From positions 4,455 to 15,388 of the forward strand of contig PKZK01000135.1 in assembly GCA_003133025.1 (NCBI GenBank): a stretch of 10,934 bases of DNA, read 5' to 3'. Position numbers and translations under genes: made by a program. Below are positions 1 to 10,880 of the stretch, in pieces (the first letter of the stretch is position 1; each line of letters begins with the position of its first letter). The stretch is from Vulcanimicrobiota bacterium (GTDB lineage Bacteria > Vulcanimicrobiota > Vulcanimicrobiia > Vulcanimicrobiales > Vulcanimicrobiaceae). Under the pieces are notes generated by a model, which saw only the letters and a list, made by a program, of their open reading frames with translations, searched no databases and was not told the origin of the DNA.

Positions 1-542
1 CGCTTGCCGACGATCATCACCAACTCGGACTCGTAATCGAAATTCTTGAAGGGCAGCGAAGAGACGTCGATCGTGCCGTTGTGGCGGTTGAGCGAGGTAT
101 TGTACTTGTTGAACAGATCCGGAAACGGCGGCAATTTCTCACCGGTCTCGGCCAAGTGCGCGCGATAATTCAGGCCGACGCAGACGATCTTGGGCGGACG
201 CGAGACCAGCGGCCCGTATTCGACCGCGTTCTCGGCGCGCACCGCCGAGGCGGGCGCGTGCAGCGCGATGCGCGCCAAGACGCTCACGTCGCCGCGGCCG
301 GCGACGACGTCGTCGACCGTTTGCGGCACGCCGGCCAGTCCGAGCGCCGCCGCGGCTCGACCCACGTCGATTATGCCGCGCGACGTGCGCAGTCCCAAGT
401 GATCGCGCGCGCCGTCGCGCAGGGTGGTGTAGGTCAGGCTGCGCGGCGCCTCGCCGGCCTCGGCCGCGGTGGGTGCGGATGCTGTCGCCGCCACCGTCGC
501 GGCGGCCGTGCCGGCGAGGAAGGCGCTGCGTGAAGGTGTCAC
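1..542 (-). CDS. Fumarylacetoacetate (FAA) hydrolase family protein, N-terminal part; the gene runs off the left edge of the window
   Basis: Not in the ORF track because there is no stop codon in the window. Manual translation from GTG at 542 gives MTPSRSAFLAGTAAATVAATASAPTAAEAGEAPRSLTYTTLRDG...GPLVSRPPKIVCVGLNYRAHLAETGEKLPPFPDLFNKYNTSL...KNFDYESELVMIVGK. KIVCVGLNYxxH, PxLFxK and DYExEL are hallmark FAH-family motifs. The start codon is inferred. Confidence 0.92.
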   Translation of the reverse strand, partial: MTPSRSAFLAGTAAATVAATASAPTAAEAGEAPRSLTYTTLRDGARDHLGLRTSRGIIDVGRAAAALGLAGVPQTVDDVVAGRGDVSVLARIALHAPASAVRAENAVEYGPLVSRPPKIVCVGLNYRAHLAETGEKLPPFPDLFNKYNTSLNRHNGTIDVSSLPFKNFDYESELVMIVGK

Positions 543-600
543 GCTCGACGAGTTTGGCAGCGGGTGACCAATCTCCGTCGGCCGAAAAGCGCGCGTCACC

Positions 601-1272
601 GTGTTCGGCCCCCTTTCGCGCTTGCCGTTTCTCCTCGCCGTGGCGCTGGTAGCCGCGGCGCTGGGCGATGCGTTCGTGGAGACGGTCTCCAACAGCGGGC
701 TGGTCGGGGCGGGCTACGCCGACGACAACCATGCGAGCGTGCTCCCGGCGTTCTTGCTCGGCGTCATTGCCGCCCTAGAAGCGGCGCGGCGGCGCTGCTG
801 CGCCCTGCTGCGTCGCGGCGAACGCCGCGCGGAAGCCGACCAGACCCTCGCCCTCATGCGCCGCTACCGCGACGTCTCTCCGCTGCGCGATCTTCCGCTC
901 GTGTTGACGCTGCAATTCGCGCTGTTGTTCGTGATGGAAAGCGCCGAACAAGTGGCCTTCGGCGGCAAGCTGCTCGGCGGCACGGCGTGGCTCGGCGGCC
1001 CGATCGCCTTTAGCCTGATCGCGCACGCTACTTTGGGGGCAGGCTGCATGCTGCTGCTGCGCTGGTTCGTGCGCAGGGTTCCGGGCGCGGTCGCGACGTT
1101 CGTGCGCGACGCACTGGACTATCTCGCGTACGTTCTCATCGCCGCCGCGCGCAGCGCGTCGTGCATTCGCACCGCCCGTCGCGACGAACGGCCCCGGCAC
1201 TGGGCTCAGGCGCCGCATTCCCGCCGCATCAGGGACCGCGCACCGCCGCTTCGCTCCTGCGCCTCGACCTAA
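601..1272 (+). CDS. Uncharacterised multi-pass membrane protein (223 aa) with C-terminal RAPP motif; candidate ribosome-arrest leader/sensor for the downstream TonB-dependent receptor
   Basis: 4-5 hydrophobic segments (about aa 8-26, 47-62, 98-112, 135-157, 163-183), then a basic linker and R213-A214-P215-P216 seven codons before TAA. It fills the gap between the divergent FAH gene and the receptor. GTG start with no clear SD. Confidence 0.8.
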   Translation: MFGPLSRLPFLLAVALVAAALGDAFVETVSNSGLVGAGYADDNHASVLPAFLLGVIAALEAARRRCCALLRRGERRAEADQTLALMRRYRDVSPLRDLPLVLTLQFALLFVMESAEQVAFGGKLLGGTAWLGGPIAFSLIAHATLGAGCMLLLRWFVRRVPGAVATFVRDALDYLAYVLIAAARSASCIRTARRDERPRHWAQAPHSRRIRDRAPPLRSCAST

Positions 1273-1286
1273 CCACAGGAACGGGA

Positions 1287-1306
1287 GCCGGGCGTACGCG
1301 CCCGGC
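1287..1306 (+). promoter_or_regulatory. GC-rich RNA hairpin directly 5' of the receptor ribosome-binding site
   Basis: gccgggcg (1287-1294), loop tacg (1295-1298), cgcccggc (1299-1306): a perfect 8-bp stem with a UACG tetraloop and no downstream U-tract. Confidence 0.6.
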
Positions 1307-1313
1307 GGAGGAG
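1307..1313 (+). promoter_or_regulatory. Shine-Dalgarno sequence of the TonB-dependent receptor
   Basis: GGAGGAG, 8 nt upstream of GTG at 1322. Confidence 0.8.
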
Positions 1314-1321
1314 CACTCGAC

Positions 1322-4069
1322 GTGAAACAGATGCGCGCCCTCGCGGCGCTGCTGATCGCGGCATGCATCGCCGTAGCCGTAATGGCCGCGGGCAATGCCG
1401 CCGAAGCCACGACCGGAATCGTCAGCGGAACGGTCGTCGACGCGCACGGCGTCACCGTTGCCGGCGCGCGCGTTGCGGCCGCGTCGCCCTCGGGCCGGTA
1501 TGCCGCGGTCAGCGACGAACGCGGGCGTTTCACGCTCCTCGGCGTCACGCCCGACTCGTATACCGTCACGGTCGAAGCCGTCGGCTTCGAGCCGCTGGTC
1601 GAGTCCGGCGTGTTGGTCTTGCCGGGACAGAATGCGGTGCTCGCCGTTCGCCTCGCGGGCACGCTACGCACCGTGGGCACCGTGCAAGCCAAGAGCAGTG
1701 CGTTCACGCATGGCGCCACGAGCGACTCGTTTACGGTCAACGGCGATGCGGCGCGCGCACTCGCGCCGCCGGCGACGTCGTCGGGTTTGGGCAACTACGG
1801 CGCGGGAACGGTGCAAGGGTCGATCGCCTCGGTGCCCGGCGTCGATTTCGACGCGTTCGGCAACGCGATTCTGCGCGGCGGCAAGATCGACGATGCGGTT
1901 TTCACCTTCGATTCGGTGCCGGTGCCGCAAGGCTTGGTCGCGGAGCCGGGCGGCAACGTGGTCGGCGCGCAATTGCCGACCACGGGCATCGGTTCGACGA
2001 CCGTCACGCTCGCGGGATACGAGACGCAGGGCGACAACGCGCTCGGGGGTGTGATCGATCAGATCCCGGCCGTCGGCACGAACCCCGGCAGCGTGCGCAT
2101 CTCCCTCGCCGACGGTCTGGCGGGCGGCCTCTTTCAGACGAGCGATCTGGAAATTCTCGGCGCGTCACCCGATCTCAAGTGGCGCTACGCGCTCGCCGCG
2201 TACGCGGGCAGCGAGTACTTCGGTTACGGCGACGGGCGCACGTTCTATCCCTCGGAAGCGGGCACGTACGGCCTCGCGTTGCAGAGTCGCGGACAGTTTT
2301 CGATCACGGGCAACGTGCACGACCGGCTCTCGCCGAGCGACGACCTCTCGTTCGTCGCGCTCGCGGGCCAAGCGACGTACGATCAATACGGCTCGCCCTA
2401 TGCGGGCGAAACGGTCGGCGCGTTCAACGGCCAAACGACGGTATATCCAGGCTCGACCAACCCGAATGCACCCGTCGATTACGCCTCGGGCGTGCGCGGC
2501 ACGTACGACATTCTCAAACTCCAATGGCTGCATTCGGGCGCGCACTCGCTCTCGCGCGTGCAACTCTATCAGACGCAATTCGGCTCGCAGGCCGGCGGCC
2601 CGTTTTGGGACGAGAACGGCTTCCCCGACGGCAGCATTTCGCTGGCCTCGCAACAGGGCGGGCGCGAGGAAGGCCTGGGATACGACGGCGAGGACGTGCT
2701 CGGCGAGCGTCACCATCTGCGCTTCGGCGCGGAGTACCGGATCGACAATTCGTTCTTGAACGAGATCGTGCCGACCGCCGACGAGGTGATCGCGTCCAAC
2801 CCCACGTTGTATTCGGCGCTCGCGTACGTGGGCGATACCTGGAGCGTCTCGCGCCGGCTCGACGTGACCGGCGCGGCGCGACTGACCAACACGCACATCG
2901 TGCCCAGCGACGGCTTCAGCTACAACGTCGGCGCGATCGATCCGCACGTCGCGAGTTCGTACGAGCTCGGCTCGAACTACACGTTGCGCGCGACCTTCGA
3001 CCACAACACGGTAGCACCGAAGCCGCTCGAGGCCGACCGCACAGACTCGACCAACGTAACGCCGACGGGTTCGCCCGCGCCGTTCGTGCCGCTCGCGCCA
3101 GAGAAGGGCGACGACTTCACCTATTCCTTCGAAGGCGGCAGCCGCACCCAATTCCGCGCGACCTATTTCGCCGAATACGAAAACAACCGCATCGACGTGC
3201 TCCCGTACAATTTCCGCAGCGCGGTCGCGGGCGGCCTCAATCCCGACGGCGTGGGCGTGCCCACCAACATCGGCAAACTCCAGGCGCACGGCTTCGAACT
3301 CTGGCTCAAACGCGACGGCTTCACGCTCGACTCCAACCTGATTCGCGGCTCCTCGTCGAGTGCTTCGCAGTTCGCCTACAACGATCTCAACGCGCCGGCG
3401 GTCGCGGCGAACCATCTCTTCCCGCTGGGCTACGTGCCCGACTTCACGACGACGCTCTCGTACGAGGTGCCGCTGGCCGGCGGTCGCGTGCGCTTGACGC
3501 CGGCGGTGTCGTACGCTACCGGCTATCCCTACGGCAACGGCAAGATGGTCTACATCTTTAACCCTCAGACCAACAAACCGCAACTCGTGCCCAACGACAA
3601 CTACGTCAACCCCGGGGAAAACTATTATTTCTTGCAGAATCCGTCGAATCCGTACAATCCCGTCAGTAACCCTTACATCGGAAACCTGGGCACGCCGGAG
3701 GGCAACGATCCGAACACGTTGCGCTCGCCGCCGCTGCTCCTCGTCAACGTGCATCTCGAGAGCGCGCTATCGCGGCGCGTCAGCGCATCGTTCGACGTGA
3801 ACAACCTGTTCGGCAACGCCACGCCCAGCGCGTATCAGGTGAATCCGTATCTGATCGGGCCGCCCGGATATGCGGGCGGCAACCCGCTCTATGCGATCGC
3901 TTACCAGGCCGCGGGCGGCTACAACGCGCCGTACACCCTGGGTAACGGCGTGCCCACCAACGACGGCGTGCACCAAGCGGTGCCCTGGAGCTACGGCCGC
4001 GCGGGCTACGTGCCCCAGGGTTACCCCAATGCGCGCACGCTTCGGCTAAAATTTCAGTACAGAATGTGA
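1322..4069 (+). CDS. TonB-dependent outer-membrane receptor with N-terminal carboxypeptidase-regulatory-like domain (915 aa); substrate unknown
   Basis: Sec signal peptide ending AEA; TGIVSGTVVD..G..VAGARV...SDERGRFTLLGVTPDSYTVTVEAVGF (CarboxypepD_reg-like); plug-like motifs VPGV..ILRGG..FTFDSVPV and NALGGVIDQI; alternating beta-strands; FDVNNLF near the C-terminus; terminal strand LRLKFQYRM; strong SD. Confidence 0.9.
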   Translation: MKQMRALAALLIAACIAVAVMAAGNAAEATTGIVSGTVVDAHGVTVAGARVAAASPSGRYAAVSDERGRFTLLGVTPDSYTVTVEAVGFEPLVESGVLVLPGQNAVLAVRLAGTLRTVGTVQAKSSAFTHGATSDSFTVNGDAARALAPPATSSGLGNYGAGTVQGSIASVPGVDFDAFGNAILRGGKIDDAVFTFDSVPVPQGLVAEPGGNVVGAQLPTTGIGSTTVTLAGYETQGDNALGGVIDQIPAVGTNPGSVRISLADGLAGGLFQTSDLEILGASPDLKWRYALAAYAGSEYFGYGDGRTFYPSEAGTYGLALQSRGQFSITGNVHDRLSPSDDLSFVALAGQATYDQYGSPYAGETVGAFNGQTTVYPGSTNPNAPVDYASGVRGTYDILKLQWLHSGAHSLSRVQLYQTQFGSQAGGPFWDENGFPDGSISLASQQGGREEGLGYDGEDVLGERHHLRFGAEYRIDNSFLNEIVPTADEVIASNPTLYSALAYVGDTWSVSRRLDVTGAARLTNTHIVPSDGFSYNVGAIDPHVASSYELGSNYTLRATFDHNTVAPKPLEADRTDSTNVTPTGSPAPFVPLAPEKGDDFTYSFEGGSRTQFRATYFAEYENNRIDVLPYNFRSAVAGGLNPDGVGVPTNIGKLQAHGFELWLKRDGFTLDSNLIRGSSSSASQFAYNDLNAPAVAANHLFPLGYVPDFTTTLSYEVPLAGGRVRLTPAVSYATGYPYGNGKMVYIFNPQTNKPQLVPNDNYVNPGENYYFLQNPSNPYNPVSNPYIGNLGTPEGNDPNTLRSPPLLLVNVHLESALSRRVSASFDVNNLFGNATPSAYQVNPYLIGPPGYAGGNPLYAIAYQAAGGYNAPYTLGNGVPTNDGVHQAVPWSYGRAGYVPQGYPNARTLRLKFQYRM

Positions 4070-4093: not shown

Positions 4094-5941
4094 ATGCCCC
4101 CCCGGATGGCACGTAAGGCAGCCCCCGGCGCCTCGCGCCGCGGGCTGGGCGCATTCGTAGGCGGCCTGCTGATCCCGTACCGGGGTACGCTTGCGGTCGT
4201 GCTCGCGGCGATGCTCGTGGAGACCGCGGCGACGCTCGCGGGTCCGTGGCCGCTCAAAGTGATCCTAGACAACGTCGTCGGCCACCACCCGCTGCCCGCC
4301 TGGCTCGGGCGCACGTTCGGAACCACGCTCGGCCACGGCCGGACGGATATCGCGGTCGCGGCGGCGCTGGCCTTCGTCGGCATCGCGGCACTCGGAGCGC
4401 TGGCCGGTTACGTCGAAAACTATTACACCGAAAGCGTAGGGCAGTTCGTGGCGAGCGACCTGCGGCTCAAAGTCTTCGCACACTTGGAGCGACTCTCACT
4501 TTCCTATTACGACTCGCATCAGACGGGCAAGTTGCTCAGCACCCTGACGGATGACGTACTGACGATTCAAAACTTCGCGTCCTCCTCGACGCTGGGCATA
4601 CTCGTCGACTTATTGACCATCGTCGGTATGGTCGGCATCATGTTTTGGCTCAACTTCGACTTCGCGTTGACCGCGATCGCCGTGACGCCGTTCCTGCTGC
4701 TCTTCGTCGCGCGCTTCAAGGGCGCGGTGAAGGCCGCCGTGCACGAGGTGCGCAACCGGCAGAGCGACATCGTGGCCGTGTTGCAAGAGGTTTTCGAGTC
4801 GATGCGTTCCGTGAAGGCCTTCGGCCGCCAAGACCTCGAGCAGCAGCGCTTGGCCGCCGCCGGAAAGGCGAGCGTCGAAGCGGCGCTCTCGGCGCGGCGC
4901 ATCAAAGCGTTGCTCTCGCCCGTGATCGCGGTGGTGGTGGCGGCCTGCACGGCCTTCGTGCTCTGGCGCGGCGCCAACCTGATTCTCGCCGGCGCGATGA
5001 CGGTCGGCGCGCTGACCGTGTTTCTGGCCTACCTGACTAAGTTTTTCAAGCCGGTGCAAGACCTCGCAAAGATGACCAACGCGATCGCGCAGACGACGGT
5101 GGGCGTCGAACGTATCCGGAGCCTGCTCGACGTCGACGCAATCATCGCGGAGCGGCCGGATGCGCTCGTGCCCACCAAGGTGCGCGGCGCGATCACCTTC
5201 GAGAACGTCGCCTTCGGCTACGATCCCGACGTGCCGGTGCTCAAGGACGTCTGCTTCTCGGTCGAGCCGGGACAACTCGTCGGCATCGTCGGCGCAACGG
5301 GCGGCGGCAAATCGACCATCATGAGCCTCCTGCCACGCTTCTACGACGCGGTCTCGGGTCGGGTGCTGCTCGACGGCGTCGACGTTCGCGACTACTCGCT
5401 CCAGGCGCTGCGCGATCAGATCGCCTTCGTGCTCCAGGATACGGTCTTGTTCCGCGGGTCGATTCGTGAAAACATCGCCTACGGCAAAGCCGATGCGACC
5501 GACGCCGAAATCGTGGCGGCCGCGAAGATCGCCAACGCGCACGACTTCATCATGGCGATGCCGCACGGTTACGACACGCCGGTCGGCGAGCGCGGCCTCA
5601 CCCTTTCAGGCGGCCAGCGCCAGCGCATCGGCATCGCGCGGGCGATCGTGCGCGACGCGCCCATCCTGCTCCTGGACGAACCGACGGCGGCGCTGGACAC
5701 CGAATCGGAGAAGCTGGTCATCGAGGCGACGGAGCGCCTCATGAAGGGACGCACGGTAATGACGATCGCGCACCGCCTGAGCACGATTCGCGACGCCGAC
5801 AAAATCATCGTGATCAAGGACGGCGTGGTGTGCGAACAGGGCACGCACGAGGAATTGCTCGCCTTGGACGGCACATACGCGGAGTTGCATCGCATCCAAT
5901 TCGAGAGCGCTGCCACCCCCGCCGCCGGCGCGCCGGCCTAG
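4094..5941 (+). CDS. ABC exporter, fused permease/ATP-binding protein (MsbA/MdlB-like half transporter)
   Basis: N-terminal transmembrane domain plus NBD with Walker A GATGGGKST, Q-loop VLQD, signature LSGGQRQRIGIAR, Walker B ILLLDEPT, D-loop ALD and H-loop IAHRLSTI. SD-like gagggg at 4079-4084. Alternative start ATG 4106. Confidence 0.96.
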   Translation: MPPRMARKAAPGASRRGLGAFVGGLLIPYRGTLAVVLAAMLVETAATLAGPWPLKVILDNVVGHHPLPAWLGRTFGTTLGHGRTDIAVAAALAFVGIAALGALAGYVENYYTESVGQFVASDLRLKVFAHLERLSLSYYDSHQTGKLLSTLTDDVLTIQNFASSSTLGILVDLLTIVGMVGIMFWLNFDFALTAIAVTPFLLLFVARFKGAVKAAVHEVRNRQSDIVAVLQEVFESMRSVKAFGRQDLEQQRLAAAGKASVEAALSARRIKALLSPVIAVVVAACTAFVLWRGANLILAGAMTVGALTVFLAYLTKFFKPVQDLAKMTNAIAQTTVGVERIRSLLDVDAIIAERPDALVPTKVRGAITFENVAFGYDPDVPVLKDVCFSVEPGQLVGIVGATGGGKSTIMSLLPRFYDAVSGRVLLDGVDVRDYSLQALRDQIAFVLQDTVLFRGSIRENIAYGKADATDAEIVAAAKIANAHDFIMAMPHGYDTPVGERGLTLSGGQRQRIGIARAIVRDAPILLLDEPTAALDTESEKLVIEATERLMKGRTVMTIAHRLSTIRDADKIIVIKDGVVCEQGTHEELLALDGTYAELHRIQFESAATPAAGAPA

Positions 5942-5946
5942 GAGCC

Positions 5947-6930
5947 ATGCCCACGCGTTCGCTCATCGTGCTGCCCGACGACTCGCCGCGCGAGATTCTC
6001 GACGCGATCGGCCGGGCGCAGCACTCGCTGCGGGTCAAGATGTTCGTCTTCTCCGATCCGGACTTGCTCGAGGCCGTGATCGCCGCCAAGCGGCGCGGGC
6101 TCGCTGTGCGCGTGATGCTCAACCCGGCGCGGCGCGACGGCCGGGACGACAACGTTGCCGCACGCGCGGCTCTGCTCGCGGCCGGCGTGAACGTGCAGGA
6201 CGCCAACCCGCGCTTCGATTTGACCCACGAGAAATCGATGGTCGTCGACGACACGGTCGCCTTCGTCAAATCGCTCAATTGGGAGACGAAAAACCTCACC
6301 GAGACGCGCGACTACGCGATCGTCACCGACCATCCGCGCGAGGTCGCCGAGATCGGTGCGTGTTTCGAGGCCGACTGGCATCGCCAAGATTTCACGCCCG
6401 GAGCGGATGCCGGCCTGGTGTGGTGTCCCGACAACGGACGCGCGCGCATCGGCGACTTCATCGACAACGCGCACAAGACGCTCTTCGTGCAGAACGAACG
6501 CTATCAAGACGCGCTCGTGATCGAACGCTTGGTGCGCGCCGCCGAACGCGGCGTGAAGGTGCACGTGATGGCGCGCGCGCCGCACACGCTCAAGGCCGAC
6601 AAGTTGATCGAAGGCGTCGGCGGACTACGCATCCTCGACGACGTGGGCGTCAAAATCCACAAGCTCAAGCACCTAAAGCTGCACGGCAAGATGTTTCTGG
6701 CCGACGGCGTGGCGGGCGTGGTCGGCTCGATCAACCTCGCACCGGGCAGCTTCGACGGCAGGCGCGAGCTGGCGATCGAGGTGCGCGACGACGCGGTGGT
6801 CGAGCGGCTTCACGACGTGGCCCGCGCCGACTGGGCCAACTCGCACCCGCTCGACCTCTCCGATGCGGGACTGCTCGCCGACCTCAAGGACCGGCAAGAC
6901 GTCGCCGAAGGGCTCCTGCCGAGCTCTTAG
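5947..6930 (+). CDS. Phospholipase D superfamily protein with two HKD motifs (cardiolipin-synthase-like, no membrane anchor), 327 aa
   Basis: HEKSMVVD (from 6226) and HGKMFLAD...GSIN (from 6682). The likely start is ATG 5947 (MPTRSLIVLPDD), 5 nt after the ABC stop. The track's 5830 start overlaps the ABC gene and reads as low-complexity R-rich sequence. Confidence 0.92.
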   Translation: MPTRSLIVLPDDSPREILDAIGRAQHSLRVKMFVFSDPDLLEAVIAAKRRGLAVRVMLNPARRDGRDDNVAARAALLAAGVNVQDANPRFDLTHEKSMVVDDTVAFVKSLNWETKNLTETRDYAIVTDHPREVAEIGACFEADWHRQDFTPGADAGLVWCPDNGRARIGDFIDNAHKTLFVQNERYQDALVIERLVRAAERGVKVHVMARAPHTLKADKLIEGVGGLRILDDVGVKIHKLKHLKLHGKMFLADGVAGVVGSINLAPGSFDGRRELAIEVRDDAVVERLHDVARADWANSHPLDLSDAGLLADLKDRQDVAEGLLPSS

Positions 6931-6951: not shown

Positions 6952-7767
6952 TCAGCGCACGGGCGTTACGTGACGCACGGCGCAGGCCACGAGCAAGACG
7001 ATGCCCGCCGTCGTACACGTGCCGAGCGCGACCACCGAGGCTTCGAGGCCGAAAGCGCCGCCGGTCAGCGCGACCGGTCCGCTCAGCGTGCCGAGGATGA
7101 GGCCGGGCGCCGCCGAGCCCGAGACGGGCGTGCTGAAGATCGTGCCCTCGGCGAAATTCCAGCCCAGATGAATGCCGATCGGAAACCACAGGTTTCCGCT
7201 CAGCCAAAACGCGGCGCCCAGTAGGAGGCCGGCTTCAGCAGCGATCGCGGCCGAACTGAAGGGCGTGGCGTGCGGATTGGCCGCGTGCGCGAAGCCGAAA
7301 ACGAGCGAGGTGATACCGATCGCAGCCCACGCGTTCCAGCCCGCGATCCAGCGAAAGAGATAGCCGCGGAAGAGCACTTCCTCGACGACCGCGGTCGCGA
7401 GCGCGCCCGCCGCAGCGGCGGCGAGGTCGACGGGCACCGGGGACGGGCCTTGCAGATGGTACGCGCCGAGCAGCGCGAGCGAGAACATGACGAGCGCGAT
7501 CAGCGCGATGCCGCCGAGCACCCCGCCCGCGAACCAGGGCAGACCGGCGGGCGCGAGTTCGACGGGCAGGCGGCGTTCGAGATAACGCGTGTGCAGCCAG
7601 TACACCCCGCCCGCCCCGAGCGCCACGCAGAGCGCGACGACGAGCGGCGGCAGACCGTGCATGACGGTCTGCACGACGACGGCCACGATAACGACCGACA
7701 CCGGACCGAGCGCCGCCGCGAAGAAACGCAGGACGCGTTCGCCCGCGCCGCTCGCGGCGACGCTCAC
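6952..7767 (-). CDS. CPBP family (CAAX/Abi, Rce1-like) intramembrane glutamic endopeptidase, 271 aa
   Basis: Motifs EEVLFRG (EExxxR), FGFAH (FxxxH) and HLGWN (HxxxN) with multiple TM helices. Start GTG at 7767 overlaps the ALDH stop (GTGA). The upstream 233 aa of the track ORF lie inside the ALDH gene. Confidence 0.92.
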   Translation of the reverse strand: MSVAASGAGERVLRFFAAALGPVSVVIVAVVVQTVMHGLPPLVVALCVALGAGGVYWLHTRYLERRLPVELAPAGLPWFAGGVLGGIALIALVMFSLALLGAYHLQGPSPVPVDLAAAAAGALATAVVEEVLFRGYLFRWIAGWNAWAAIGITSLVFGFAHAANPHATPFSSAAIAAEAGLLLGAAFWLSGNLWFPIGIHLGWNFAEGTIFSTPVSGSAAPGLILGTLSGPVALTGGAFGLEASVVALGTCTTAGIVLLVACAVRHVTPVR

Positions 7768-9194
7768 GGCAGACGGTCGAGGGCTTTGAGCAGCAGCCGC
7801 GCTTTGGGCCCGTACGGCGGATACAAGAGCGACAGCGCGCTGCGCTTCGCCTGACGGAAGACCGCGCGCTCGTGCGAGAAGGCGCGGAACCCGAAGACCC
7901 CGTGGTAATTGCCCGCGCCGCTCTCGCCCACGCCGCCGAAAGGCAGATGCTCGTTGGCTAGCTGGATCACCACATCGTCGAGTGCGACGCCGCCCGACGA
8001 CGTCGCCTCGACGATCGGTTCGGTTTCCGCCGACGGACCGAAGGCGTAAAGCGCCAGCGGTTTGGGCCGCAGGTTGACCTTGGCGATCGCGTCGTCGATC
8101 GAGCGGTAGGTCAACACCGGCAGCACCGGTCCGAAGATCTCCTCCGACATGATCGGCGCGTCGAAGCCCGCGCCGGTCACGATCGTCGGCGCGATGTAGC
8201 GACGCTCGCGATCGCGTTGGCCCCCGAGCACGATGCGCGCGCCGGCAGCCACGCTCGCATCGAGCAGGTTGACGATGCGCTCGAACGCGGCGTCGTCGAC
8301 GATCCGGCACAGATCGGGATTGATGCTGCGCGCCGATTCGGTCTTGCCGTACATGCGCTCGACCGCGGCGATCGTTTCGGCCAGAAACCGCTCGGCCAGC
8401 ATCTCGTGCACGAGCACGTAATCCGGCGCGACGCAGGTTTGGCCCGCGTTGATGAACTTGCCCCACGCGATGCGCTCGCCCGCAATCGCGGGATCGGCGT
8501 GTTCGGTTACGAATGCGGGCGATTTACCGCCGAGTTCGAGCGTGACGCTGGCCAGATGCTCGGCCGCGGCGCGCATCACGATCTTGCCCACGCGCGTGCT
8601 GCCGGTAAAGAAGATGTGATCGAAGGGAAAGGTCAGGAGCCGTTCGGCCGTGTCGATGTCGCCGCCGGCGAAGGCCACGTCTTCCGCCGCAAACGCCTCG
8701 TGCACGATCGTTTCGATCGCGGCCGCCGTGCGCGGCGTCTTCTCCGAGGGTCGCAGGATCACGCGATTCCCTGCGGCGAGCGCGGCGACCAGCGGCACGA
8801 TGGCCAAATAAAACGGGTAGTTCCAGGGCGCCAAGATCAGCGCGACGCCCTTGGGCTCGTACCGCACCTCGCTGCGCGCGCCGGCGAGTTTGAGCGGGGT
8901 CGGCACCTTTTCGGGACGCGCCCAGGCCGAGAGCGAGCGCCGCGCGTAACGCAGTTCGGCGAGCGCCGGACCGATCTCGGTCAGTTCGGTTTCCTCGGGC
9001 GCTTTGCCGAAGTCGCCGGCGAGCGCCGCGACGATGTCCTTCCGGTGCTTGCGGATGGCGCGTTCGAGCGCGTCGAGCCGCGCGCGCCGGCCGGCGAGCG
9101 GCGGGTAGGGCTGAGCCCGGTAGCGCCTGCGCTGCGCTTCGAAGGCGGCGCGCAGTTCGTCGCTGGAAGGGTTGGCCATCGGCGCCGAGATCAT
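7764..9194 (-). CDS. NAD(P)+-dependent aldehyde dehydrogenase, ALDH3/AlkH-like, 476 aa
   Basis: PWNYPF, FFTGSTRVG, LELGGKSP (catalytic Glu), NAGQTCVAPDY (catalytic Cys), EEIFGPVLP, PFGGVGESGAGNYHG and C-terminal YPPY typical of family 3. Start ATG 9194 overlaps the SBP stop (ATGA). Alternative start ATG 9179. Confidence 0.96.
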   Translation of the reverse strand: MISAPMANPSSDELRAAFEAQRRRYRAQPYPPLAGRRARLDALERAIRKHRKDIVAALAGDFGKAPEETELTEIGPALAELRYARRSLSAWARPEKVPTPLKLAGARSEVRYEPKGVALILAPWNYPFYLAIVPLVAALAAGNRVILRPSEKTPRTAAAIETIVHEAFAAEDVAFAGGDIDTAERLLTFPFDHIFFTGSTRVGKIVMRAAAEHLASVTLELGGKSPAFVTEHADPAIAGERIAWGKFINAGQTCVAPDYVLVHEMLAERFLAETIAAVERMYGKTESARSINPDLCRIVDDAAFERIVNLLDASVAAGARIVLGGQRDRERRYIAPTIVTGAGFDAPIMSEEIFGPVLPVLTYRSIDDAIAKVNLRPKPLALYAFGPSAETEPIVEATSSGGVALDDVVIQLANEHLPFGGVGESGAGNYHGVFGFRAFSHERAVFRQAKRSALSLLYPPYGPKARLLLKALDRLP

Positions 9195-10786
9195 CGGAGA
9201 CTCCAGTCGTAGGCGTTCCACGTCGGTGAGAACGCGTTCGGTGCGAAGCCGTGCAAACGCTTGCGGTACGCGTAGACGTAGCTGGGATTGAACAAATAGA
9301 TGATGGGCACGTCGTGCGCGACGATCCGGTCGATCGCGCGATAGGCCGCACGCCGCGCGTCGCGGCCGGTTGCGGCAATGGCCGCCGACTCCAAGCGCTC
9401 GACGCGCGGATCGCAGTAGCGCATGTAGTTCTTCGCGGCCGCCGAGCAACCGTAGAGAAAGCGATCGTCGGGATCGGCGCCCATCGACCAAGGCACGTAA
9501 GCCACATCGAAGGCGCCGCTCGCCAGCACGCCGGTTTGGGGCAGGAAGAGCTGCGCGTTCGAGATCGACTTGAGCGTGACGTCGACGCCGCGCTCTTCCA
9601 ACTCGCGTTGCGCAACGGTCGCCACGCGCACGCCGGTCGTCGTTTCGGGAAACTGCACGTAGGTGAGTGCGAGGCTGCGGCCGTCCTTACGGCGCTTGCC
9701 GTCGGGGCCGCGCCGCCAGCCCGCCGCATCGAAGGCCGCATCGGCCGCGCGCGGATCGAAGGGCGGCTGCAGGATGCTCGCATCGTAAGCCCAGGAGAAA
9801 CGTGGCCGGTCGGAATCGGCCACCGGATATTTGCCCAGCGTTATCTTGGCGCTGATGCCGCCGCGATCGAGCGATGCGGCGAGCGCCCGGCGCACGCGCG
9901 GATCGTCGAACGGCGGGTGCGTGGTATTGAGCGCAAGGCCCGCGATCAACGCGGTCGCAACGCTGGTGAAGGCGATGCCGTCGACGCCCGCGAGCACGGC
10001 CTGCTGCGACGGCGCGATCAGGTTGAAGTCGAGGCTGTCCGAACGCAAGAGCGTCAGATTGGTTTGCGGATCGGGCACGATCCCGATCTCGAGCCGCTCC
10101 ACTTTGGGTCGCCCGCGCCAATAGAGCGGATTCGCGCGATAGGTCAGGCGGTCGCCGCGGCGCCACTCGACGAACGCGAAGGGCCCGTCGCCGACGCTCG
10201 GCGCCGCGCCGAAGGCCGCCCGGTCGAGCGGGCCCTGGTGCGCCAGCACGTGTTCGGGCAGCACGTACTGCGGCGAGGTGCCGTACGCGAAAAACGTCGC
10301 AACGGCGGGCGCCCAGGCTCGTTTGAGATGCACGCGCACGGTCAGTGGATCGGGCGCGGTCGCCGCATCGATCAGCTCGTAGCCCTCACGCGAGCCGACG
10401 GGATTGGCCGGATCGAGGATGGCGTGCAGCGTGAAGAGCACGTCGCGCGCGGTCAGGGGCACGCCGTCGCTCCAGCGCACGCCACGCCGGAGGTGGTAGA
10501 CGATCGTCCGGCCGTCGGGCGAGATGCCGCCGTTGGCTGCGGTCGGGATCGTCGCCAGCAGTTCGGGCACGGGCCGGCCGCTCGGATCGAGGTCGAAGAA
10601 CGGCTCGAAGACCAGGTGGGCCAACTGCTGCTCGACGTTGGCCGCGTCGGCGTGGGCGAACAGGGGATCGAGCGTGCCCGGGTCGGCCGCAACGTTAAAA
10701 CGCAGGGGCGGCGGCCCCGCTGCCGGGGCGGGGCCGCGGAGGCCGAGCGCGAGGAGCAGGGCGATGAGGGCGAAAGCCGGGCGCAC
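9191..10786 (-). CDS. ABC transporter substrate-binding protein, family 5 (peptide/nickel type), 531 aa
   Basis: DPGTLDP, PELLATIPTAANGGISPDGRTIVYHLRRGVRWSDGVPLTARDVLFT, VGDGPF, ANPLYWRGRPK, PPFDDPRVRRALA, NYMRYCDPRV and terminal WNAYDW. Signal peptide VRPAFALIALLLALGLRGPAPA follows an SD-like gaagggg, favouring GTG 10786 over ATG 10879. Confidence 0.93.
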   Translation of the reverse strand: MRPAFALIALLLALGLRGPAPAAGPPPLRFNVAADPGTLDPLFAHADAANVEQQLAHLVFEPFFDLDPSGRPVPELLATIPTAANGGISPDGRTIVYHLRRGVRWSDGVPLTARDVLFTLHAILDPANPVGSREGYELIDAATAPDPLTVRVHLKRAWAPAVATFFAYGTSPQYVLPEHVLAHQGPLDRAAFGAAPSVGDGPFAFVEWRRGDRLTYRANPLYWRGRPKVERLEIGIVPDPQTNLTLLRSDSLDFNLIAPSQQAVLAGVDGIAFTSVATALIAGLALNTTHPPFDDPRVRRALAASLDRGGISAKITLGKYPVADSDRPRFSWAYDASILQPPFDPRAADAAFDAAGWRRGPDGKRRKDGRSLALTYVQFPETTTGVRVATVAQRELEERGVDVTLKSISNAQLFLPQTGVLASGAFDVAYVPWSMGADPDDRFLYGCSAAAKNYMRYCDPRVERLESAAIAATGRDARRAAYRAIDRIVAHDVPIIYLFNPSYVYAYRKRLHGFAPNAFSPTWNAYDWSLR

Positions 10787-10880
10787 CGCCACCCCTTCGC
10801 ACGGCCGCGGACGGCGCCCCCCGGACGGAACAAAGCTCGGCCGCCCGCCGGCAAATCCCCGGATTTTCTCCGTATTCATC

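Follow-up and report, generated by a model that had tools for sequence, protein, structure and literature searches.

The bases that follow the RAPP codons of a leader gene in this Vulcanimicrobiota genome are predicted to pair with the adjoining receptor gene's Shine-Dalgarno sequence (SD), and a ribosome likely stalling at RAPP would cover them, likely switching receptor translation on. We put the probability of this reading at roughly three in four. The features of the window (the whole stretch of DNA analysed, 10,934 nt) are as follows.

3–542, minus strand: divergent FAA-hydrolase-family gene, its start region abutting the leader promoter
562–586, plus strand: putative sigma-H-like promoter (GGG at 562–564, 19-nt spacer, GAA at 584–586), 14 nt before the leader start
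601–1272, plus strand: leader ORF (223 aa) for a predicted helical bundle of four TM segments, with RAPP near the C-terminus (from the ORF, homologs, AlphaFold2 and hydropathy)
667–1026, plus strand: codons of the near-invariant residues D23, E27, N31, D41, Q105, E113, E116, Q117 and H142 (138-row alignment)
1237–1248, plus strand: RAPP codons (R213–P216), predicted stall site; R, P and P invariant in 138/138 aligned rows, the locus-derived rows having been selected for the motif
1253–1260, plus strand: anti-SD arm (from pair probabilities and centroid structure)
1263–1285, plus strand: weak inner hairpin spanning the leader stop codon 1270–1272 (MFE and centroid)
1287–1306, plus strand: GC-rich 8-bp hairpin predicted by folding, which brings both arms together and occupies 1304–1306
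1307–1313, plus strand: receptor gene SD, 8 nt 5' of the GTG at 1322
1322–4069, plus strand: TonB-dependent-receptor-like outer-membrane protein, 915 aa, the predicted regulated gene (PF13620 and a homolog)
4094–5941, plus strand: ABC exporter, after a 24-nt gap behind the receptor
5938–6930, plus strand: phospholipase-D-family gene, overlapping the ABC exporter by 4 nt
6955–7680, minus strand: CAAX-protease-like protein
7767–9200, minus strand: aldehyde dehydrogenase
9194–10789, minus strand: family-5 solute-binding protein

The four minus-strand genes around the locus are ordinary.

The helix at the leader-receptor junction

A preliminary description of this DNA had noted that 10 of the 11 positions of 1253–1263 match the reverse complement of 1304–1314, the exception being a G-G mismatch at 1259/1308; this is confirmed, and the coordinates it had given are correct on the sequence. 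Folding bears out most of the proposed anti-SD helix. The pairs 1253–1258:1309–1314 (P 0.67–0.87) and 1260:1307 (P 0.72–0.84) are predicted in four of five folding windows, with P 0.11 in the widest (1100–1450). The remaining pairs, 1261–1263:1304–1306, stay at P ≤ 0.15 because the 8-bp hairpin 1287–1306 takes up 1304–1306, and a full 11-bp helix was rejected on this ground in favour of a functional helix of 6–7 bp. In the predicted structure, helix 1253–1258:1309–1314 closes a junction that holds the hairpins 1263–1285 and 1287–1306. Overall, the 101-nt region does not exceed its shuffles in stability (z −0.59).

Pro215 is encoded by 1243–1245, and after RAPP the leader continues for seven residues to a TAA at 1270. 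The footprint of a ribosome is about 11–15 nt counted from the P-site codon; with Pro215 in the P site, it is predicted to end at 1253–1257, which is the range in which masking switches the fold. When the region was folded with and without forced-unpaired bases, as the preliminary description had suggested, the SD was paired in the free ensemble and the helix was lost on masking: it stayed when bases up to 1252 were forced unpaired (P 0.99), and was gone when the mask extended to 1255 or 1258. With these two masks, the cost of opening the SD fell from 5.5 to 2.5–2.8 kcal/mol in 1235–1335, and stood at 3.3–4.0 kcal/mol in the windows starting at 1150 or 1200. The opening cost of the whole ribosome-binding site (RBS, 1305–1334) was nearly unchanged, moving from 10.95 to 9.37 kcal/mol, and the SD stays partly paired even after masking, with one mask setting moving the partner away (pairing fraction 0.09). 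The idea that a stalled ribosome would free the SD is supported by these predictions as far as the helix is concerned, while the gain in accessibility at the studied locus is modest. Of 300 synonymous recodings, about 97% give a weaker duplex between the post-RAPP bases and the RBS than the actual sequence does (quantile 0.028). The assumed stall register, with the third motif residue in the P site, agrees with what has been reported for ApdA, ApdP and CruR (PMC10951233, PMC12992588).

The complementarity had been taken as independent support for arrest at the RNA level. That interpretation gains computational support here; the helix by itself is no proof of arrest, because a ribosome at the stop codon at 1270 would cover the same bases. 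A search of Rfam over the locus gave no riboswitch, and the match of hairpin 1287–1306 to a CRISPR repeat (22.8 bits) lies below the gathering threshold of 39. Five RNA runs matched with small shares. Contigs from four of them match the leader exactly, for example over 577–727, 614–883, 968–1143 and 1123–1283, and also the receptor; none of these contigs crosses the leader-receptor junction, and the X1 and X2 pieces are identical. As contigs reveal neither strand nor level, we give them no evidential weight.

Conservation in related loci and competing explanations

Predicted SD-masking complementarity is conserved across related loci and locked in position, with moderate covariation, in line with what the preliminary description had expected of a functional element. 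The 69 receptor and 65 LCP loci with spacers of 15–130 nt were dereplicated at 75% identity to 54 and 56, respectively, and compared with adjacent gene pairs from the studied genome; SD strength decided the choice of start codon in test loci and control pairs alike. The SD was at least 50% paired with the stall footprint (P+3 to P+17) in 32/54 receptor and 25/56 LCP loci, against 6/109 controls, which leaves 22/54 and 31/56 loci below this line. Counted from the Arg codon, the profile of pairing partners peaks at +12 to +20 in receptor loci and at +4 to +16 in LCP loci; it is flat in controls. On stalling, the SD opening cost drops by at least 1.5 kcal/mol in 37/54 receptor and 35/56 LCP loci, compared to 15/109 controls, and when the mask is moved from five codons upstream to the stall, mean SD opening falls by 3.3 (receptor) and 2.9 (LCP) kcal/mol, versus 0.15 in controls. 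Counting MFE helices of at least 5 bp was dropped as a weak test, since these occur in 51/54 and 52/56 loci, yet also in 95/212 controls. In three paralogs from the same genome (C13, C71, C254), the SD helix is not the MFE structure.

The choice of codons points in the same direction. The first Pro of the motif is encoded by CCT in 20 of the 56 LCP loci, against a background of about 5%, and Leu codons in receptor loci are CTC at +1 (22/27) and CTC or CTT at +2 (31/36, background 54%). The residue at +1 after RAPP is any of 11 different amino acids in receptor loci, with the pairing kept. The observed duplex beats the mean of synonymous recodings in 47/54 receptor and 41/56 LCP loci, and a locus's own arm beats random other arms in 40/54 and 42/56. 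Cognate pairing exceeds permuted pairing with a p of about 2e-4, a value that overstates the case because the loci are kin and not independent; non-cognate arms also pair well (−11.1 against −13.7 kcal/mol for cognate ones). Unusual RBS sequences have matching arms in loci L009, L016, L204, L137 and L212. For a fixed 8-pair structure, whose register was chosen from one sequence, and which was scored in 43 of the 54 receptor loci, again kin, double-sided changes number 20 versus 10.3 in shuffles (0/500 shuffles reach this value), and the covariation score is 0.248 versus 0.193 (2/500 shuffles), with every slid register scoring lower. RNAalifold found no consensus pairs in a 43-row MAFFT alignment, because the helix register shifts between loci. 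Exchanging arms between nearest relatives gave 26 better and 28 worse receptor loci by duplex energy (LCP, 32 versus 23), and with full folding the gain was weak (33 versus 20 and 31 versus 22); these outcomes indicate that much of the arm fit reflects shared ancestry.

The arm could in principle be a by-product of chance or of the protein sequence, the C/U-rich codons of a Pro-Pro-Leu-Leu stretch in a 66% GC genome pairing with any GGAG. The unremarkable stability of the local fold, the good pairing of non-cognate arms and the many control pairs with a loosely defined helix would all fit this account, but it is at odds with synonymous codons that are skewed towards anti-SD letters, with pairing that is kept while the residues after RAPP vary, with double-sided changes above those of all 500 shuffles, and with the advantage of cognate over permuted arms, so that we consider it the least probable of the alternatives weighed here. 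Somewhat more probable, though still improbable, is plain coupling, in which the helix is melted by any ribosome that translates the leader or terminates there, so that receptor synthesis depends on leader translation, and RAPP causes a pause but no regulated release. The stop at 1270 is only 12–17 nt from the arm, a distance at which a terminating ribosome would cover it, and because of this proximity the studied locus cannot separate stall from coupling; in the Alteromonas leader uDF_RQH, moreover, ribosome transit gave basal opening (PMC10987492). Across loci, the spread of partner positions is similar against RAPP and against the stop (5.6 and 6.3 nt), and the partner position follows the stop offset with a slope above zero. 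This slope is 0.35 ± 0.10 (95 loci), however, rather than 1, and in four loci, related to each other, whose tails are 11 aa long, the arm stays at +13.5 to +14.8, some 30 nt ahead of the stop. Ordinary adjacent gene pairs mostly lack such a helix (present in 6/109), and coupling leaves the invariance of RxPP and of the polar cluster unexplained. The partner-position data thus lean towards the stall over the stop, without settling the question.

Even less probable than coupling is a mechanism of the CruR type, by which the stalled ribosome would block Rho at a C-rich site near RAPP, with the anti-SD match as a by-product or secondary layer. Its target would likewise be a TonB-dependent receptor, and C exceeds G around RAPP (+0.14 versus +0.004 in controls), reminiscent of the C>G bubble of cruR (PMC9426467), but part of this skew consists of the Pro codons and the anti-SD themselves. 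A rho gene is present in 50/61 related genomes (44/55 without six unpublished ones, all positive); it was not found in the studied genome (G000, 80% complete) or, with two models, in the leader-carrying genomes G004 (one contig, 97%), G014 (96%) and G010 (96%), which weakens the CruR-type mechanism. Moreover, locus L004 from G004 has a 12-pair MFE helix, the complementarity tracks the non-canonical RBS sequences of L009, L016 and L204, and the plus strand has no intrinsic terminator in 450–1500. A Rho layer is possible in rho-bearing lineages. We prefer the reading in which a ribosome stalled at RAPP holds the anti-SD arm away from the SD.

As a separate observation, rho was not found in 11 of the 61 related genomes, among them G013, G021, G002, a one-contig genome at 97% and several at 95–99% completeness, which suggests lineage-specific loss of Rho within Vulcanimicrobiaceae.

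Leader family, downstream genes and promoter

A first search gave 80 homologs of the leader at 40–60% identity, and a search with a 138-row profile expanded the family to 614 clusters at E ≤ 1e-3. Of the phylum's 301 genomes, 123 carry leaders, and these genomes all belong to three families of one class; among 45 named homolog records, 34 are titled Vulcanimicrobiota/Eremiobacterota or subgroups thereof, and 11 stand under other depositor labels. RAPP is invariant in 45/45 homologs, and RxPP lies within the last 30 residues of 142/148 library representatives. The family HMM hit 253 ORFs in 245 loci, of which seven have no stop; 235 of the 246 complete ORFs carry RxPP within their last 25 residues, with C-terminal tails of 2–11 aa, and of the 11 that do not, several look split or frameshifted and some are duplicates. 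Removal of 54 duplicates and of 12 loci with too little downstream DNA left 169 loci, with 149 RAPP, 11 RGPP, 7 RPPP and 2 RSPP motifs. The seven RPPP leaders (L027, L028, L030, L240, L242, L243, L244) are divergent and lie ahead of other genes, which encode a cytochrome c protein, an exported protein that is uncharacterised, and one receptor. By analogy to the PPP of CutF, they could be EF-P-sensitive.

Two further family members were found in the studied genome, both on minus strands: C13, before an LCP gene, and C71, before a gene that we take, from reading it by eye, to be DJ-1/PfpI-like. In addition, C254 (minus strand) holds a similar RAPP-ending membrane ORF before a receptor-like gene, with the sigma-H-like promoter motif and a similar layout. 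Neither tblastn nor the family HMM picked it up, so there is probably a subfamily at greater distance. Searching the whole genome for ORFs that end in RxPP yielded 255 frames, mostly spurious, and served just to point to paralogs.

AlphaFold2 models the leader confidently as a helical bundle, with a pLDDT of 86.4 and helices at 4–31, 47–73, 76–90, 94–119 and 135–195. Hydropathy and the distribution of Lys and Arg are consistent with four TM helices and an N-terminus on the inner side, and the positive-inside pattern places loops 32–46 and 118–134 outside. The polar residues D23, E27, N31, D41, Q105, E113, E116, Q117 and H142 are each conserved in 124–137 of 138 sequences; judging from their position in the helices, they would lie towards the outer face, where the Asp/Glu/His cluster likely constitutes a candidate cation or ligand site. 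No Cys column is conserved at 60% or more in the same 138 sequences. Pfam has no family above cut-off for 45 members, NCBIfam none common to two or more of 138 members, with weak single-member matches only, and DUF2946 matches neither the 45 members at E ≤ 0.05 nor the studied leader. The best structural match to the model is the MacB/FtsX TM domain (YbbP, 9ge6; Z 9.1 against a stated bar of about 13, rmsd 4.3, 145 residues aligned), a likeness at the level of a helical bundle. Foldseek gave no match at E ≤ 0.001, and the absence of a match is no proof of a new fold. In an Atlas feature search, the leads were unnamed clusters from Dormiibacterota and Actinomycetota, at 0.96. The protein family appears to be undescribed: it was not found in print by a search that took in part of the PMC12992588 supplement, its motifs WLGGP and WLGAP are absent from the examined part of the PMC12992588 uORF list, the rest of which may contain the family, and a literature search on arrest peptides in Eremiobacterota found nothing.

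The receptor at the studied locus has an N-terminal CarboxypepD_reg domain (PF13620, E 7.5e-16). While it matches CarboxypepD_reg models only, it is 61% identical over 927 columns to the receptor of L055, which has PF00593 above cut-off. Clustering the downstream genes of the 169 loci gives 72 receptor-like genes, 66 LCP genes, with the LCP assignment confirmed by a PF03816 match in three loci, and 31 others, including a CsoR/RcnR-type repressor (L070), a DUF1007 gene followed by NicO (L073), a cytochrome c protein, an RND pump and a bestrophin-like protein. The leader module is reused before LCP enzymes and a small number of further genes, which mostly relate to the envelope or to metals. No Sec/YidC family was found downstream among the scanned representatives; L244, L242, L225, L025 and L194 lay outside the Pfam scan. 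Neighbouring genes gave no consistent clue to a ligand among 54 ORFs scanned. Near some leaders there are metal genes, namely NicO nickel transporters, a multicopper oxidase and the CsoR/RcnR-type repressor (L127:1411-2745, L125:1309-3462, L073:5002-5949, L070:4714-5037), too sporadic to name a ligand. The ABC gene after the receptor recurs in L089 and in none of the other loci whose neighbours were scanned.

Upstream of the leader, the putative sigma-H-like promoter at 562–586 would yield a nearly leaderless mRNA. An AGG-N17–20-GAA motif stands 7–14 nt before the start of 48 of 98 leaders, compared to a mean of 1.0 and a maximum of 6 in 500 shuffles, with spacers of 18–19 dominating. Two paralogs in the same genome have the AGG form, and the studied locus has a GGG-N19-GAA variant; SigH promoters of C. 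difficile show the same AGG-N18/19-GAA layout (PMC7438776, Table 3). A SigH ortholog scores above the TIGR02859 cut-off in the studied genome and in 28 of 31 genomes (26/29 without two unpublished ones). No sigma-70 promoter was found in 450–1500.

Genome-wide, AGG-N19-GAA occurs 251 times, about five-fold more rarely than other spacers of the same codon phase (1209–1384 occurrences), and with a spacer of 18 or 20 the words are rarer by about 1.8-fold. Of 1973 coding-like ORFs, 54 are preceded by the motif, against 28.5 for control spacers. The rarity of AGG-N19-GAA resembles the avoidance of a promoter consensus and suggests that the SigH ortholog is a major sigma factor in these non-model soil bacteria.

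Related systems and proposed mechanism

The logic of the switch is already known from SecM, uDF_RQH and CutF; the family that carries it is apparently undescribed, and its predicted outer-face polar site, the LCP targets and the putative sigma-H-like promoter are new. The preliminary description had invoked SecM-secA and MifM-yidC2, which follow the same principle of a sequestered SD, but uDF_RQH_Enterobacterales-secDF2 of Alteromonas (PMC10987492) and CutF-cutO are closer. The former, like SecM-secA, MifM-yidC2 and VemP-secDF2, resembles what is predicted for the studied leader in its RAPP-like C-terminal arrest, where the P site holds the third residue, its two stem-loops and its masked SD freed by the stalled ribosome, and its arrest and stem mutants have been tested genetically (PMC10987492). 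This group, however, monitors Sec/YidC and regulates their genes, whereas the studied family precedes receptor-like, LCP and other genes, and the studied leader is a predicted folded four-TM bundle with a conserved polar site. Judging by the scanned downstream genes and the Pfam search, the family consists neither of Sec/YidC monitors nor of DUF2946 proteins.

CutF of Rhodobacter capsulatus (10.1101/2022.11.11.516240, 10.1101/2025.02.05.636593) resembles what is predicted for the studied leader in being an exported nascent sensor with a proline-rich C-terminus, which senses an extracytoplasmic ligand and in which an anti-SD stem shields the downstream SD; an anti-SD mutant has been tested genetically (10.1101/2022.11.11.516240). 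CutF-like proteins (DUF2946) are, however, defined as shorter than 150 aa with a signal peptide, and CutF has a CxxxC motif and a Cu-induced, EF-P-sensitive PPP stall, in contrast to the 223 aa, the four predicted TM helices, the lack of conserved Cys and the missing DUF2946 match of the studied leader. CruR (DUF2946) of Bordetella pertussis is also a RAPP leader directly 5' of a TonB-dependent transporter gene, bfrG, whose expression is permitted by arrest, but it acts on Rho-dependent termination, has a CXXC copper motif and is followed by a 162-bp spacer (PMC9426467); the studied locus has a 49-nt spacer and a conserved SD-masking helix, in a genome where, as in several close relatives, rho was not found. 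In Streptomyces lividans, SLIV_18480, SLIV_27375, SLIV_33595 as well as SLIV_33605 have four predicted TM segments before RAPP or RGPP and have been shown to arrest, SLIV_18480 being a proposed metal sensor (PMC12992588). As described, they differ in their predicted His/Met/Cys sites and in their targets, which are a gene related to metals, a protein with a thioredoxin domain and ECF sigma factors, and the part of PMC12992588 drawn on here reports no SD switch for them. RAPP leaders before TonB receptors form a large known class, with 5450 RAPP against 722 AAPP in the enrichment table of PMC12992588, and almost all of them have a signal sequence (PMC12992588).

For the studied leader, we envisage that it inserts as a four-helix bundle, which would have left the exit tunnel entirely when Pro215, 57 residues beyond R158, occupies the P site. 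The ribosome would then arrest at RAP/P after the bundle has entered the membrane, keeping the anti-SD away and allowing the receptor to be translated. The duration of the stall may be set by a ligand at the outer-face Asp/Glu/His cluster, whose binding would induce folding of the bundle and pull the stall free, so that the helix closes. Scarcity of the ligand would accordingly prolong arrest and induce the importer, while under sufficiency the helix would re-form. The carboxylate/His cluster and the few metal-gene targets make a divalent cation our best guess, at about even odds, its binding being what would fold the bundle and release the stall; protons, membrane potential or the state of insertion are a less probable signal, and something other than these is less probable still. 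More broadly, and somewhat short of even odds, the family may represent undescribed, portable polytopic sensors that read an outside cation or proton while on the ribosome, through a carboxylate/His site (D23, E27, E113, E116, H142) without cysteines, and pass the signal on to a RAPP stall and from there to an anti-SD embedded in the last codons; expressed from a sigma-H-like promoter, they would stand before TonB receptors, LCP cell-wall ligases and nickel or other metal genes across Vulcanimicrobiia.

If this is true, it would mean arrest-peptide control of LCP enzymes, which we did not find in the literature searched (LCP had no mention in what was searched on RAPP, uORFs and ribosome stalling), as well as a non-copper, carboxylate-based arrest sensor in acid-soil bacteria. 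The Discussion of PMC12992588 leaves open whether RAPP leaders outside the Sec/YidC group regulate downstream genes, and what pulls them free. On the former question, the 110 dereplicated loci provide comparative RNA evidence that RAPP leaders regulate via the SD; on the latter, the leader family offers a membrane sensor that is predicted to be folded and has a small set of invariant residues. Predicted arrest control is thereby extended to LCP enzymes, and a likely sigma-H promoter signature is exposed in a mostly uncultured soil phylum.
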